From Candidatus Pelagibacter sp. HTCC7211 (GTDB lineage: Bacteria > Pseudomonadota > Alphaproteobacteria > Pelagibacterales > Pelagibacteraceae), in the NCBI RefSeq assembly GCF_000155895.1, contig NZ_DS995298.1, positions 300,001-332,000 on the forward strand: a stretch of DNA of 32,000 nt, written 5' to 3'. The notes beneath the pieces were generated by a model, which was not told the DNA's origin, did not search any database, and saw only the letters and a program-made list of their open reading frames with translations. This document shows positions 3,182 through 10,697 of this stretch, in pieces. Position 1 is the stretch's first letter; every line of letters begins with the position of its first letter. Made by a program: the position numbers and the translations under genes.

Positions 3182-3182
3182 A

Positions 3183-3359
3183 ATGCAAAAATTTACAACA
3201 TTATTAGGCACTATACTTGCAGCATCTTTTCTAATTGGTTTAGCAACAACTTTAACTAGATCTTCAATGATAGGTTTCTTTGATGTATTGCCTGTTTATA
3301 TATTAATGGCTATTGCAATCTTTATGATGGTCTATGAAGCTTTCTTTGACAGAAAATAG
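3183..3359 (+). CDS. Small hydrophobic protein, 58 aa, two predicted TM helices (absent from the supplied ORF track)
   Basis: Hand translation from ATG 3183 to TAG 3357-3359 gives MQKFTTLLGTILAASFLIGLATTLTRSSMIGFFDVLPVYILMAIAIFMMVYEAFFDRK. The ATG lies 1 nt after the amidase stop. Without this ORF the region would be a 196-nt non-coding gap, which would be unusual in this window. Confidence 0.5.
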   Translation: MQKFTTLLGTILAASFLIGLATTLTRSSMIGFFDVLPVYILMAIAIFMMVYEAFFDRK

Positions 3360-3377
3360 TTCTTAATTGATAAAAAG

Positions 3378-5133: not shown

Positions 5134-5697
5134 GTGAAAAAATTACTTTTAATTTCAGTTATTTTATTTTTGTTTAAAAATTCTCTATTTGCTCAAGATA
5201 ATAAACTTATGGTTGATAATTTATTTCATATCGACCAAATGAATTCACATGATGAAAATTTCGCTTTGTATTTTAAATCAAGAGAAAAAGCAATTTTAGC
5301 AAGAGGTGAAAATAGTAACTATATAAATGATTTTCCTAAAGACTTATTTATATATGATTATAAAACAAAAAGCTCTTCTCCTTTAATTTCTTACGAATGG
5401 TTTCCGGCTAGAGCAAAATATTTTTTAAAAGAATATAGTTTTCCAGTTTTTCCTGATGATTTTGCCTATTATCTTTTAGAGGATAATAGGACATTGGTAA
5501 TGATTAGTGCAGTAAAAAGTTTAAATAAAAACTTTAAGTTTGATATTAGTAAAAAAAAATTAGAACTTTATCCAAAAAATGGAAAATTTAATTTTATAAT
5601 TTCGTCTATTGCTAAAAGTTGTGGTCACAACAATTTTAATGATAATTACAAGTGTAGCTTCTATAAACCTTTAATTTCAAGCACTTTGATTAAGTAA
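5134..5697 (+). CDS. Hypothetical exported protein (signal peptide; no recognisable domain)
   Basis: A GTG start gives MKKLLLISVILFLFKNSLFA|QD, a classic signal peptide (Lys-Lys, hydrophobic core, small residues before the cleavage site). The remaining sequence of about 165 aa is Asn/Lys/Phe-rich with no motif I recognise. Confidence 0.6.
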   Translation: MKKLLLISVILFLFKNSLFAQDNKLMVDNLFHIDQMNSHDENFALYFKSREKAILARGENSNYINDFPKDLFIYDYKTKSSSPLISYEWFPARAKYFLKEYSFPVFPDDFAYYLLEDNRTLVMISAVKSLNKNFKFDISKKKLELYPKNGKFNFIISSIAKSCGHNNFNDNYKCSFYKPLISSTLIK

Positions 5698-6607
5698 TTT
5701 GTGTAAATGCTTCAGCAAATTTTTCAGCCTCGAAAATTTGAAGATCATCTTCTTTTTCTCCTAAACCTAAAGCTATAATTGGAAGTTTAAATTTTTTAGC
5801 AACAGCCAAAAGAATTCCTCCTTTTGCTGTGCCATCTAATTTTGTCATTATGAGACCAGTAATTGGAATAATTTTATTAAACTCTTCAACTTGATTAATC
5901 ACATTTTGGCCGGAAGTTGCATCTAAAACTAAAATTACATCATGAGGTGCCTCAGGGTCCATTTTTTTTGTAACATTCGCAATTTTTTTATATTCCTCCA
6001 TTAAATTTTTTTTATTTTGCAATCGTCCTGCTGTATCAATTAAAACTTGATCAAAATTATTAGCAATTGCTTCCTCTATAGCTTTAAAAGCAACTGAAGC
6101 AGGGTCTGCACCTTGTGAAGATTTTGTTATTTCAACATCTACTTTGTTTGCCCAATTTTCTAATTGTTCGATAGCTGCGGCTCTAAAAGTATCCGATGCA
6201 GCAAGCATAACTTTATTCCCATTTGCTTTTAATATTTTGCTGATTTTTCCAATAGTCGTAGTTTTTCCTACGCCATTTACACCTGAAATTAATGTGGCAG
6301 AAATTTTTTCTTTCTTGTTAAAAAAATTATTATTTTCAAGAGGTTTCATCAATGAAATTATATAATCTTTTAAGATAGTCCTAATTTCGTCAGCAATATC
6401 TTTGTTTGGATCAATTTTACTATCTGTAATTATTTCTTTAATTTCGGATGCTGCAACAACACCAACATCAGATTGAATTAAATACTCTTCTATTCTATCT
6501 AAAGTTTTGTCATCAATTTCTTTTTTTACAACTATATCTCTTAAACCGGATGTAAAAGCTGATGCACTTTTTTTAAAACCAGATTTGAAGTTATCAAAAA
6601 TTCCCAT
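5690..6607 (-). CDS. ftsY: Signal recognition particle receptor FtsY (short form without an acidic A domain)
   Basis: SRP-GTPase NG domain motifs are present: GVNGVGKTTTIGK (G1), DTAGR (G3), TKLDGTAKGG (G4). At 305 aa it has only a short amphipathic N-terminus. Confidence 0.95.
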   Translation of the reverse strand: MGIFDNFKSGFKKSASAFTSGLRDIVVKKEIDDKTLDRIEEYLIQSDVGVVAASEIKEIITDSKIDPNKDIADEIRTILKDYIISLMKPLENNNFFNKKEKISATLISGVNGVGKTTTIGKISKILKANGNKVMLAASDTFRAAAIEQLENWANKVDVEITKSSQGADPASVAFKAIEEAIANNFDQVLIDTAGRLQNKKNLMEEYKKIANVTKKMDPEAPHDVILVLDATSGQNVINQVEEFNKIIPITGLIMTKLDGTAKGGILLAVAKKFKLPIIALGLGEKEDDLQIFEAEKFAEAFTQIT

Positions 6608-7431
6608 TAAATTTTAATCTCAATATTTTTAATGTCTGAGACTGGCCCTTTCATATGGATACTATTATCTTTATCAATAGAAATTGTTAGTTTGCCCAAT
6701 GCAAATTCAACATCAGCTTGTTTATCTGTTAATCCATTTATATTTGCAGCTACAACTGTAGCACACGCTGCAGTACCACAAGCTTTTGTAAGTCCTGCTC
6801 CTCTCTCCCAAACTTTCACTTTAATCAAATTTCTATTAATAACTTTTGCAAGAGTTACATTACATTTTTCTGGAAAATAATTGTGATTTTCTATTTCAGG
6901 ACCAATTTTTTTTAAATCATAATCTTCGATATCATCTATAAAAAAAACAACATGAGGGTTTCCAACATTAATTGAAGTTCCCCCAATATGCTCATTATTA
7001 TTTTTACTAATAATTTTAATATTCAAATTTTTTGTGTTTAAATCTTTTTTAAGCGGAATTTCATCCCAGTTAGTTTTTGCAACACCAATTTCAGTTTCTA
7101 CTAAATTATTGCCTAAAATTTTTGATTTAAGTGTTCCAGAAGATGTCCAAAGTATAATTTCTTTATCATCGCTTTCTTTTGACAACAATTCAGCAACACA
7201 TCTTGTGCCATTCCCACAAGCACCAGAAATACTACCATCTGAATTGTAAAATTCTAATTCAGCATCTTTTTTGCCACTATTTTTAATGAAAATTAACTGA
7301 TCACATCCAATGAAATCTCGACCACATATTTTAATTATTTGATCTTTACTTAGATTATAATTTTGACTTCTTTGGTCTATGATCACAAAATCATTACCTA
7401 AACCGTCCATTTTAAAAGCTTTAATATCCAT
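6607..7431 (-). CDS. dapF: Diaminopimelate epimerase
   Basis: 274 aa with GNDFVIID at the N-terminus and both catalytic Cys contexts (NSDGSISGACGNGTRC and ERGAGLTKACGTAACA). Its stop shares 1 nt with the ftsY start. Confidence 0.95.
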   Translation of the reverse strand: MDIKAFKMDGLGNDFVIIDQRSQNYNLSKDQIIKICGRDFIGCDQLIFIKNSGKKDAELEFYNSDGSISGACGNGTRCVAELLSKESDDKEIILWTSSGTLKSKILGNNLVETEIGVAKTNWDEIPLKKDLNTKNLNIKIISKNNNEHIGGTSINVGNPHVVFFIDDIEDYDLKKIGPEIENHNYFPEKCNVTLAKVINRNLIKVKVWERGAGLTKACGTAACATVVAANINGLTDKQADVEFALGKLTISIDKDNSIHMKGPVSDIKNIEIKI

Positions 7432-7491
7432 ATATAGATATTTAACTTATTTATTGACTTTTTGAACCTCTATTATAGGTTGTCGTCGTTT

Positions 7492-7568
7492 CCGCAAAAA
7501 CATTAACTTTGCGGTGTCTTTGGAAACAAAGAGATCGACACTAGTCAGCGAGGCTTCGCCCACTAGTG
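7492..7568 (+). ncRNA. Candidate structured RNA element: three consecutive hairpins in the 161-bp dapF/ffh spacer. Family unknown, strand tentative.
   Basis: Hairpin A: ccgcaaa (7492-7498) pairs with tttgcgg (7508-7514). Hairpin B: tctttg (7517-7522) pairs with caaaga (7527-7532) around a GAAA tetraloop. Hairpin C: cactagt (7539-7545) pairs with actagtg (7562-7568), enclosing gcga-GGCT-tcgc (7548-7559). G+C here is about 50%, far above the surroundings. The GNRA-type loop exists only on the plus strand. Confidence 0.35.
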
Positions 7569-7592
7569 CGATTACTGCTGTGCGTAATAAAT

Positions 7593-8951
7593 ATGTTTGA
7601 AAATTTAACAAATAAATTCGAAGAAATTTTTTCTTCTTTAAAAAAGGCTCCTTCACTTAATGAGGCACAAGTAGATGAGGGTTTGAGAAGTATTAGACAG
7701 GCTTTGTTGGAGGCCGATGTTACTCTTGAGGTGGCTAAAGAATTTATTGAGAATGTAAAACCAAAGGTTCTAGGACAAGAAATCATTAGATCAACTTCTC
7801 CTGGAGATATGGTTGTTAAAATTGTCTATGACGAGTTGGTAAATTTATTAGGTGAAACTAATAATGAAATAAACCTTAATGCGGTACCACCTGTACCTAT
7901 GATGCTTGTCGGGCTTCAAGGATCAGGAAAAACAACAACTACTGCTAAATTAGCAAAATATTTAGAAACAAATAAAAAGAAAAAAGTAATGATGGTTAGT
8001 CTTGATATTTACAGACCAGCCGCACAAGAACAGCTTAGATCACTTGGAGAACAAAATAATATTTTAACTCTTCCTATAATAGAAGGTCAACAACCAACCG
8101 ACATTTGTCAAAGAGCAATAAGTGCAGCAAATCTTAATGGAGCTGAAATAATTTTATTTGATACAGCTGGCAGAACTCAAATTGATCTACAAATGATGAG
8201 TGAAATAAAACAAATTGAAAGCGTTATAAAACCCACAGAAACGTTTTTAGTTGCTGACTCGCTAACAGGACAAGTGGCAGCAGCAGTTGCAAAAGAATTT
8301 AAAAATACAGTTAGTCTTTCTGGAATAATTTTGACTAGAGCAGATGGTGATGCAAGAGGTGGAGCAGCTGTAAGTATGAAATATGTTTCAAATGTTCCAA
8401 TAAAATTTTTAGGTATTGGAGAGAAAATAGATAATCTTGAAGTGTTTCACCCAGATAGAATAGCAAATAGAATTCTTGGAATGGGAGATATAGTGTCTCT
8501 TGTTGAAAAAGCTGCTCAAGATCTAGGTGAAGAAAACATAAAAAAAGCAGAGGAGAATTTAAAAAAAGGTCAATTTTCTATGCAAGATTATTTAACACAG
8601 CTTAGACAAATGAAAAAAATGGGTGGTATCGAGGGTATAATGTCTTTTATGCCAGGAGTTTCTAAGATGAAATCTCAAATGGACTCAGCAGGAATTGATG
8701 AAAGTATTATTACAAAAAATGAAGCTATAATTTTATCAATGACTAAAAAAGAGAGAGAGAACCCAAAAATTATAGGAGGTTCTAGAAAAAAAAGAATTGC
8801 TAATGGCTCTGGCACAGATCCAGCCACTATCAATAAATTGCTTAAGCAATTTAAAATGATGTCTGAAATGATGAAAAAGATGTCAAAAGGAAATCTGAAA
8901 GGTATGTCTGACAAAGGAATACCGCCAGAGCTATTTAACCAATTAAAATAA
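7593..8951 (+). CDS. ffh: Signal recognition particle protein Ffh (SRP54 homologue)
   Basis: It has the conserved N-terminus MFENLTNKFEEIF, the motifs GLQGSGKTTT, DTAGR and TRADGDARGG, and a Met-rich M domain (QMKKMGGIEGIMSFMPG ... MMSEMMKKM). I prefer ATG 7593 to the track's GTG at 7566, which adds nine residues unlike any Ffh N-terminus. Confidence 0.95.
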   Translation: MFENLTNKFEEIFSSLKKAPSLNEAQVDEGLRSIRQALLEADVTLEVAKEFIENVKPKVLGQEIIRSTSPGDMVVKIVYDELVNLLGETNNEINLNAVPPVPMMLVGLQGSGKTTTTAKLAKYLETNKKKKVMMVSLDIYRPAAQEQLRSLGEQNNILTLPIIEGQQPTDICQRAISAANLNGAEIILFDTAGRTQIDLQMMSEIKQIESVIKPTETFLVADSLTGQVAAAVAKEFKNTVSLSGIILTRADGDARGGAAVSMKYVSNVPIKFLGIGEKIDNLEVFHPDRIANRILGMGDIVSLVEKAAQDLGEENIKKAEENLKKGQFSMQDYLTQLRQMKKMGGIEGIMSFMPGVSKMKSQMDSAGIDESIITKNEAIILSMTKKERENPKIIGGSRKKRIANGSGTDPATINKLLKQFKMMSEMMKKMSKGNLKGMSDKGIPPELFNQLK

Positions 8952-8966: not shown

Positions 8967-9470
8967 ATGTTAAAATTAAGATTATCAAGAGGGGGAACAA
9001 AAAAACGTCCTGTTTACAAAGTAGTTGTAGCAGACAGTCGGTTTGCAAGAGACGGAAGATTCATAGAGAAAGTAGGCTTCTTTAACCCACTTTTGCCTAA
9101 AGATAAAAAAGAAAGAGTAGGTCTTGAGGCTGAAAGAATAAAGTATTGGTTAGGTCAAGGTGCTCAACCAACTACAAGAGTTGCAAGAATTCTAGGTGAA
9201 AATGAATTAATGCCTATGCCTGCTAATGGTAACAATCCAAAAAAAGCAGTTCCAAAAAAAGAAAGAAAAAAAGAAGGTGAAGAAGCACCAGCAGCTGCTC
9301 CAAAAACAGAAGCTTCAGCAGCAGAAGCTCCTAAAGAAGAAGCTCCAGCAGCAGAAGCAGCACCAGCAGCAGAAGCAGCACCAACAGCAGAAGCAGCACC
9401 AGCAGCAGAAGCAGCACCAGCACCAGCAGCAGCACCAGCAGCAGAAGCTCCTAAAGAGGAACAAAAATAA
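8967..9470 (+). CDS. rpsP: 30S ribosomal protein S16 with a long Lys-rich, then Ala/Pro/Glu-rich, C-terminal extension
   Basis: The N-terminal ~77 aa are canonical S16 ([41 protein letters not shown]...). Residues ~78-167 are a low-complexity tail ending in APAAEA-type repeats and PKEEQK. Confidence 0.95.
9342..9449 (+). repeat. In-frame imperfect tandem repeat, 18 nt x 6 (hexapeptide APAAEA and variants), inside the rpsP tail
   Basis: Read directly from the sequence: the unit gca/gct cca gca gca gaa gca encodes [36 protein letters not shown] (S16 residues 126-161). The stretch is locally GC-rich in an AT-rich genome. Confidence 0.85.
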
Positions 9471-9484
9471 TTTAAACTTTATTT

Positions 9485-10171
9485 ATGTGGCAAGCTCAAG
9501 TATTTACACTTTACCCAGAAGTTTTTCCTGGACCTTTATCAAAAGGACTTTATGGAAAAGCTTTATCTAAAAAATTGTGGAACTTGAATATTGTAAACAT
9601 TAGAGACGCAGCTGAGGATAAACATAAAACGGTTGATGATACTCCTTACGGCGGTGGTTCTGGTATGCTTTTAAAACCTGATGTCTTAGCAAAATCACTA
9701 GATCAAAATGAAATTAAAGGTGGAAGAATAATTTATTTATCACCAAGAGGTAAAAAGTTTGATCAAAATTATGCTCGAGAATTGTCTGATGAAAAATCAA
9801 TATCTCTAATTTGTGGGCATTTTGAGGGAGTTGATGAAAGAGTGCTTGCTACTAGAAATATTGAAGAGATAAGTATTGGAGATTATGTTTTGTCAGGCGG
9901 TGAAACAGCTGCATTTGTTGTAATAGATAGTGTACTTAGACTTTTGCCTGGCATTTTGGGTAATGAAAATTCTAAGGTTGATGAAAGTTTTGAAAACGGG
10001 TTATTAGAGTATCCACAGTACACAAAACCTCAAATTTGGGAGGAAAAAGCTGTGCCAGAGGTCCTATTATCAGGTGATCACAGCAAAATTAAAGACTGGC
10101 GTTTATCTCAATCTGAGGCTATAACACGCGTCCGAAGACCAGATTTATGGGAAAAATATAAGAAGAATTAA
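9485..10171 (+). CDS. trmD: tRNA (guanine37-N1)-methyltransferase
   Basis: 228 aa with TrmD motifs: [44 protein letters not shown]. Confidence 0.95.
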
Positions 10172-10187
10172 TTTGATAAATATAGCT

Positions 10188-10697
10188 ATGAAAACAATTG
10201 AAGAAATAAATCAGCACAATGTTAAGAAAATACTTTCTGAGAAAAAAATTCCAGATTTTTATCCAGGGGATGTTGTAAAAGTTGGAGTTAGAATAACAGA
10301 GGGTAAAAAAGAAAGAATTCAATATTTTGAAGGTGTTTGTATTGCTAAAAAAAGTAGAGATTTAAACTCTTCTTTTACGGTCAGAAAAATTTCTTTTGGG
10401 GAAGGTGTTGAGAGAACTTTTCCTTTATATGGAACATTAATAGATTCAATTAAAGTTATTAGATCAGGTAAAGTTAGAAGAGCTAAATTATATTACTTAA
10501 GGGATAGAACAGGTAAATCAGCAAGAATTGCAGAAAAGATTAGAAAAAAAATCGGGATTGATGTTGACGTAAAACCAGAAACTGTCACAGAGGAGAATGT
10601 AGCTCCAGCAGTAGAAGCAGCACCAACAGCAGAAGCTCCAGCAGCAGAAGCTACTAAAGAAGAACAACAATCAGAAAGCACTTCAGAAAAAAAATAA
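10188..10697 (+). CDS. rplS: 50S ribosomal protein L19 with an Ala/Pro/Glu-rich C-terminal extension
   Basis: The core is canonical L19 ([32 protein letters not shown] ... RRAKLYYLR). ATG 10188 (MKTIEEINQ) fits L19 N-termini better than the track's TTG at 10173. The tail is ...[32 protein letters not shown]. Confidence 0.93.
10602..10652 (+). repeat. Ala/Pro/Glu hexapeptide-type repeat in the rplS tail, related to the rpsP repeat
   Basis: It encodes [17 protein letters not shown]. The 24-nt string agaagcagcaccaacagcagaagc (10613-10636) is identical to rpsP 9371-9394. With the 8 nt upstream included, the match is 32 nt with one mismatch. Confidence 0.7.

Follow-up and report, generated by a model that had tools for sequence, protein, structure and literature searches.

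The 161-nt spacer between dapF and ffh of Candidatus Pelagibacter sp. HTCC7211, which lies in the 32,000-nt stretch of DNA analyzed here (the window), carries the known RNA motif RF01793 on its plus strand, and this motif is part of a larger conserved structure that stands behind promoter boxes at a conserved position, is linked to rpsP across the Alphaproteobacteria, and persists in genomes in which no ffh is found. We consider it likely that the spacer consists of a promoter followed by a structured 5' leader to which a protein encoded in the operon binds in cis, with the ribosomal proteins S16 and L19 as the best candidates rather than Ffh.

The spacer extends from the dapF start (7431, minus strand) to the ffh ATG (7593). 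On the plus strand, ffh (7593..8951; Pfam SRP54_N, SRP54, and SRP_SPB) is the first gene of an operon that continues with rpsP (8967-9470; Ribosomal_S16), trmD (9485-10171; tRNA_m1G_MT), and rplS (10173-10697; Ribosomal_L19), with these genes 14-15 nt apart or abutting; rimM is missing between rpsP and trmD, where the gap (9471-9484) is 14 nt. The divergent neighbor on the minus strand is dapF (6607..7431; DAP_epimerase), with ftsY (5690-6607; SRP54) beyond it. A first-pass annotation, made from the sequence of the window, had singled out this spacer as four times longer than any other and as G+C-rich in its 3' part. Its length is 161 nt; counting ORFs of at least 80 amino acids, the gap at 3182-3377 (196 nt) is the only longer one, and the next is 48 nt. 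The compositional contrast is as described, with a G+C content of 49% in 7478-7585 against 32% in the whole window and 17% in 7432-7477.

The same annotation had found no family for the hairpins in this region and had proposed a scan with Rfam covariance models. That scan, run on the whole window against Rfam 15, returns one match, the motif named "ffh" (RF01793), at 7524-7577 on the plus strand, above its cut-off (54.4 bits, where the gathering score is 35; E of 7e-8 for the whole window) and over positions 1-52 of the 52 in the model; the spacer by itself, scanned permissively with every Rfam family, likewise gives only RF01793. The match is intergenic, ends 15 nt upstream of the ffh ATG on the same strand, and corresponds to the third of the three hairpins (H3) with its flanks, with a 7-bp outer stem closed by a C-G pair, two conserved C residues on the 3' side of the internal loop, and a 4-bp inner stem. 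The element is, therefore, an already known motif, published from Pelagibacter in 2009 (Meyer, Ames, Smith et al., BMC Genomics 2009;10:268; PMC2704228). Discovered by ranking the G+C-rich intergenic regions of Pelagibacter ubique HTCC1062, it was described as a single bulged hairpin upstream of ffh whose two bulge C's are nearly invariant, and only this hairpin is present in the structure line of the published alignment; its function was left open (PMC2704228). In another genome of the window genome's genus (G041), the RF01793 match (260205-260256) falls inside the published HTCC1062 interval (PMC2704228).

All three adjacent hairpins of the first-pass annotation can be drawn where it had placed them, and every pair that it listed is canonical. 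The 5'-terminal hairpin, H1 (7492..7514), has 7 bp and a 9-nt loop (CCGCAAA at 7492-7498 with TTTGCGG at 7508-7514). The middle hairpin, H2 (7517-7532), pairs TCTTTG (7517-7522) with CAAAGA (7527-7532) around a GAAA loop (7523-7526), and H3 (7539..7568) consists of an outer stem (CACTAGT, 7539-7545; ACTAGTG, 7562-7568), an internal loop (CA, 7546-7547; CC, 7560-7561), and an inner stem (GCGA, 7548-7551; TCGC, 7556-7559) with the loop GGCT. H3 ends 24 nt before the ffh ATG. Downstream of it, 11 nt before the ATG and at the position expected of a ribosome-binding site, is a tail box (TGCTGT, 7576..7581; consensus Y-G-Y-U-(U)-G-G) that is nearly invariant among relatives (columns 96-101 of A5) and for which no covarying partner was found in an alignment of 71 leaders.

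Comparison among relatives, which had been suggested as a check for compensatory changes, enlarges this picture. In 39 distinct leaders of the order Pelagibacterales, aligned without structural guidance, 3 of 7 pairs of H1, 6 of 6 of the GAAA hairpin, and 2 of 11 of H3 are changed on both sides, and 97.5% of cells pair, compared with 38-46% when partners are slid; H1 is present in all 28 distinct leaders of the order in which it was scored. RNAalifold extends the middle hairpin downward, such that an upstream CGGU (the last bases of the H1 3' strand plus the next base) pairs with GAUCG. The resulting long helix of 11 pairs, P2 (7512..7537), comprises the basal pairs C7512-G7537, G7513-C7536, G7514-U7535, and U7515-A7534, a G7516/G7533 mismatch, and the GAAA hairpin. 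With a covariance model of P2 and H3 built from the order, we aligned 71 distinct leaders drawn from many families of Alphaproteobacteria, in which all 10 modeled pairs of P2 are changed on both sides and 93% of its cells pair (counts that derive in part from an alignment fitted to the model). The basal pair is C-G in 42 leaders, U-A in 12, G-C in 4, and U-G in 2, and the third pair is G-U in 59 of 71. Covariation extends to 10 of the 11 pairs of H3, in which 100% of cells pair, and overall 97.2% of cells in the class-level set pair against 31-42% in slid controls. Because this alignment was fitted to the model, each sequence was also folded alone: P2 is recovered in 64 of 71 cases (28/28 leaders of the order and 36/43 others), and recovery drops to 14 and 19, respectively, under a laxer criterion when the 5' part is shuffled. 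The current Rfam model covers only about half of this conserved structure.

Some features of single-sequence folds did not carry over to relatives. The first-pass annotation had drawn attention to the GAAA loop as a GNRA tetraloop present on the plus strand; the loops of the P2 helix vary freely in relatives, and we reject the tetraloop as a functional feature. It had also expected the fold to be more stable than shuffled controls, which it is modestly on the plus strand (z of -2.2), whereas the minus strand scores better (z of -4.3). The minus strand is nevertheless rejected as the functional one, given the strand of the Rfam match and the many conserved G-U pairs, which would be C-A on the opposite strand. 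An extension of H3, in which GAUCG pairs with a downstream CGAU as in the minimum free energy fold of the window, leaves about half of the cells unpaired in the 71 leaders, whereas the upstream partner of GAUCG covaries. Two pairings of the tail box were not adopted either. A closing helix with the 5' UUCC(GCA) has -9.6 to -11.9 kcal/mol in some genera and -5 to -7 in that of the window but is absent from G+C-rich relatives, and the tail is too invariant for it to be tested by covariation; the other, with the 5' half of H3 (UCAGCG), allows no covariation.

Upstream of H1, conservation points to a promoter for the ffh operon, an assignment that we make on comparative grounds. A -35 box (TTGACT, 7454..7459, plus strand) is followed 16 nt later by a -10-like box (TAGGTT, 7476..7481); TTGAC recurs in 83 of 84 distinct upstream regions from the order, the class, and the MED-G09 order described below, and TAnnnn follows it after 16-18 nt in nearly all loci. 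A strict sigma-70 consensus scan of 7380-7640 calls no promoter. Beyond the -10 box and a G+C-rich stretch, the leader starts with CGTTTCC (7487..7493), which fits a pyrimidine-rich word, C-R-Y-U-U-U-C-C, found class-wide in many alphaproteobacterial families, and transcription is predicted to start at about 7487-7489, with H1 beginning about 5 nt later. The slot that opens 5 nt past the -10 box and closes at the base of P2 has a constant length of 28-32 nt in almost every lineage, and 52 of 70 leaders, including all members of the order, have a hairpin with a dG of -3 kcal/mol or lower inside it. The position of the promoter and the fixed slot would place H1 at the 5' terminus and all three hairpins in the 5' untranslated region.

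On the opposite strand, the TATAAT (7477-7472) that had been proposed as part of a dapF promoter is indeed there, 41 nt ahead of the start of dapF, without a convincing -35 box. It overlaps the -10 region of the predicted ffh promoter, and the divergent promoters of dapF and ffh may overlap back to back.

RF01793 occurs in 138 of 151 genomes sampled from the order, one copy in each, and the window's own genome likewise has a single copy; at the level of the class, 47 of 151 family representatives have it, and in 37 of these the score passes the cut-off (the order and class tallies each include one unpublished genome, G109 and G190, respectively, no sequence from which was used). None of 14 control genomes, Caulobacter among them, has a match. 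In the first 80 loci fetched, the end of the motif lies 6-112 nt upstream of ffh in 78, with distances of 50-112 nt from the start codon in some Alphaproteobacteria. Upstream of the motif, dapF is missing from most class-level loci, and the motif is therefore independent of that gene. Downstream, ffh is directly succeeded by rpsP in 18 of 20 class-level loci, and in 43 of the 45 family representatives that have the motif, rpsP follows it on the same strand at a distance of 0.04-4.1 kb. About a dozen representatives in which ffh and rpsP are on separate contigs or several kilobases apart (some of these being contig ends) have no RF01793 match.

The decisive exception among these loci comes from the MED-G09 order, which we sampled with 25 species genomes from three genera (G204 and G300-G323), all of them metagenome assembled and eight at least 90% complete. 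In G204 (alpha proteobacterium MED-G09, from a marine planktonic lineage), the motif lies 41 nt upstream of rpsP, which is followed by rimM, trmD, and rplS, with dapF divergent and no ffh. Searches for the Ffh M domain (PF02978) found nothing in any of the 25 genomes, those for the SRP54-type GTPase (PF00448) gave no real match in them (only two weak, partial P-loop matches), and TIGR00959 has no match in the five most complete; the window's Ffh protein used as a query has no match in G204, nor does the SRP RNA model (RF00169). The PF02978 search does find Ffh in 145 of 151 class representatives and in 17 of 21 Pelagibacterales, among them the window's genome (G000). Of the 25 MED-G09-order genomes, 20 nonetheless have an RF01793 match that passes the cut-off, always about 35-40 nt upstream of rpsP. 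These leaders keep the promoter, the 5' hairpin, P2, H3, and the tail box; in the inner stem of H3, the first pair has changed on both sides, from G-C to A-U. The element therefore tracks the operon with the ribosomal-protein genes and not ffh as such; like an r-leader, it is a conserved structured RNA that lies upstream of ribosomal-protein genes on the same strand and would be co-transcribed with them.

Several further observations concern these genomes. In L106:1-11686, the syntenic site has dapF and rpsP directly facing each other, and beyond dapF an mtaB-like gene takes the place of ftsY; rimM, present in G204, is absent from one MED-G09 genus. In 12 of the 20 motif-bearing genomes (loci L107-L124), the contig ends 310-530 nt past the motif, inside or just after rpsP, and contig ends after the motif are also seen in two Pelagibacterales assemblies (G147:C20 and G325:C12). 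The SRP pathway may have been lost throughout this lineage of free-living marine plankton, and we found no report of such a loss in the literature. Five family representatives of the class (G169, G262, G264, G266, and G268), three of which are assembled into one or two contigs, also have no PF02978 match, and a search of four of the five with the window's Ffh protein gave neither an Ffh nor an FtsY match. Their S16 scores are below the usual, and they may be fast-evolving lineages; either SRP loss is commoner than assumed or divergent copies were missed by the search.

As to what the leader may bind, Ffh is unlikely, since the leader is kept upstream of rpsP in genomes without detectable ffh, and RimM is excluded because it is missing from the window operon and from part of the MED-G09 order. 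On this comparative evidence, S16, L19, and TrmD are the candidates that remain, and we favor feedback by a ribosomal protein encoded in the operon, S16 or L19. To look for mimicry of rRNA, the P2 and H3 model was run with filters off on the 16S and 23S genes of the genome, and nothing significant emerged (best score of 8 bits with an E of 0.58, all E values >0.5), although such mimicry is often too short for a search of this kind. The tail consensus (window 7570-7581) matches a 23S gene (L133:1637-1661, minus strand) at 13 of 15 positions, GAUAACUGCUGAAAG; this match to the 3' domain of 23S rRNA is confined to A+T-rich lineages, has an E of about 2, and is judged to be due to chance.

We envisage a leader unit made up of H1, P2 with its CGGU-GAUCG base and almost invariant G-U pair, H3 with the CA/CC loop, and a single-stranded tail box. 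S16 or L19 in surplus over rRNA would sit on P2 and H3 together with the tail box, 11-24 nt from the AUG, recognizing the CA/CC loop, the G-U pair of P2, GAUCG, and the tail box. The bound protein would block loading of ribosomes onto the first cistron and so lower expression of the whole, translationally coupled operon, and H1 may shield the 5' end of the mRNA from decay. The distance of 50-112 nt between motif and start codon in some Alphaproteobacteria implies that simple occlusion of the ribosome site would not be universal. A bolder version, which we advance tentatively and regard as somewhat short of an even bet, holds that the ffh motif is misnamed: a three-part leader with a tail box would sense S16 or L19 and control (ffh)-rpsP-trmD-rplS class-wide, would have outlived ffh in the MED-G09 order, which apparently has lost the whole SRP pathway (Ffh, FtsY, and 4.5S RNA), and might have gained a switch in Pelagibacterales through the overlap of H1 and P2.

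Such a conformational switch could also be the main function of the leader, and this is the alternative that we take most seriously, though we still think it unlikely. In Pelagibacterales, H1 and the base of P2 share 7512-7514 and are mutually exclusive, so that a factor or co-transcriptional folding would choose between them. Column 48 covaries with both of its partners, pairing with the H1 5' strand as G-C in 31 leaders, A-U in 7, and G-U in 1, and with GAUCG as C-G in 31, U-A in 7, and U-G in 1; in the window, the folds containing H1 and the P2 base are nearly isoenergetic (-27.7 and -26.9 kcal/mol, 0.8 apart), and an independent case occurs in L053. The seven A-U/U-A cases within the order may, however, reflect one inherited event, the P2 base has a probability of <7% in the computed ensemble of the window, and in the MED-G09 order and several other lineages H1 and P2 do not overlap, being separated by 7-9 nt. 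Next in order, and likewise improbable, is a leader without a ligand that guards the mRNA from 5'-end-dependent decay or tunes translation or growth-rate control. It would account for an H1 that nearly all lineages place right at the 5' end, in a slot of fixed length and free sequence, and for the G+C-rich stretch between the -10 box and the start, such as is present in stringently controlled promoters, but not readily for the CA/CC loop, P2 G-U pair, GAUCG, and tail box, whose near invariance across the class is typical of specific recognition. Autoregulation by Ffh, which we rate below both of these, would have the leader mimic the segment of 4.5S RNA to which the M domain of Ffh binds, such that excess Ffh represses its own translation. 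Ffh is an RNA-binding protein, its gene comes first behind the motif in 78 of the 80 loci fetched first, and the possibility was raised, with reservations, by Meyer et al., who nonetheless saw no likeness of the motif to the Ffh-binding part of 4.5S RNA (PMC2704228). Aligned locally, the leader and the 4.5S RNA of its own genome score no better than shuffles (12 against a shuffle mean of 13.7), and we reject SRP-RNA mimicry; moreover, 20 genomes of the MED-G09 order keep the whole leader before rpsP, and neither Ffh nor an FtsY-type GTPase was found in that order, nor SRP RNA in G204. Of the autoregulatory sites suggested by the first-pass annotation, the one for a ribosomal protein is still the best guess, whereas that for an SRP protein is weakened.

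An independent, trans-acting small RNA is what the Rfam type label ("Gene; sRNA") suggests and had been one of the first readings of the spacer. Marine metatranscriptomes are reported to contain short transcripts of the RF01793 region, as are RNA-seq data from Mesorhizobium and Bartonella; the papers searched report expression of the motif only, and none gives binding, reporter, or transcript-end data for any member. A scan of 7380-7640 nevertheless found no terminator-like site, and H3 is not followed by a U run, which argues against a separate RNA; H3 ends only 24 nt before the start codon, the element is single copy in each genome, and in all lineages it keeps one orientation and a fixed place with respect to the operon's first gene. 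We regard this reading as very unlikely. Least credible of all is an operator acting at the DNA level, whose inverted repeats would bind a transcription factor for the divergent dapF and ffh promoters. In its favor are the perfect 7-bp inverted repeat of H3 and a minus-strand fold at least as good as that of the plus strand. Against it, the stems change sequence and yet pair, the many G-U pairs are meaningless in duplex DNA, the conserved CA/CC loop is asymmetric, the element lies downstream of the predicted promoter, and dapF is not upstream in most class-level loci. The reading that the first-pass annotation had preferred, a plus-strand 5' leader of ffh-rpsP-trmD-rplS, is by contrast borne out by the Rfam match, the G-U pairs, the conserved promoter, and the position before ffh in 78 of 80 loci.

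The function of the motif has been open since 2009, and its name steers attention toward Ffh; its occurrence before rpsP without detectable ffh yields instead a short, testable list of ligands, namely, S16, L19, and TrmD. Covariation in P2 is as broad as that of the published hairpin, and adding P2 to the model would improve homology searches and the design of binding constructs. SAR11 bacteria have very few regulators and almost no noncoding DNA, and a leader governing the SRP protein together with ribosomal proteins would be one of the few visible control points in these organisms. An order without detectable SRP components, if confirmed, would be of interest to the field of protein targeting.

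Among known systems, the L19 leader of Firmicutes and Flavobacteria, which we take to be RF00556, and the S16 r-leader of Flavobacteria are alike in kind: both are structured 5' leaders before rpsP or rplS operons, for which feedback through binding of the encoded ribosomal protein has been proposed. Neither is related in sequence or structure to the leader in the window (the permissive Rfam scan returned RF01793 only), and both stand directly before rpsP or rplS, whereas the leader described here usually precedes ffh (for the S16 r-leader, see Eckert and Weinberg 2020; PMC7247131). The natural Ffh site, domain IV of 4.5S RNA, shares with our leader a hairpin with internal loops and an association with ffh, but there is no sequence similarity, the internal loop of the leader is 2x2 and not one of the SRP loops, and the leader persists in genomes in which no SRP was found, contrary to what is expected of a mimic of domain IV. 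The 5' untranslated region of E. coli ompA has a 5'-terminal stabilizer hairpin, and H1 similarly lies only a few nucleotides from the predicted 5' end, and its position is conserved but its sequence is not; H1 is, however, only one part of a larger conserved leader, and its stabilizing role here would be an analogy. Closest of all is the published and Rfam ffh motif itself, with which the window shares the bulged hairpin, the CA/CC internal loop, the GAUCG 5' flank, the site upstream of ffh, and the organism group of its discovery. That motif is one hairpin of 52 positions, to which the leader in the window adds P2, a 5'-terminal hairpin, and a tail box, and the 5' flank that was drawn unpaired is here the 3' strand of the covarying P2. 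Its name implies a link to ffh for which the MED-G09 genomes give no support. Two refinements go beyond the 2009 paper and the Rfam model as it stands: the extended covarying architecture and the evidence, from comparison of genomes, that Ffh is probably not needed for the upkeep of the motif.
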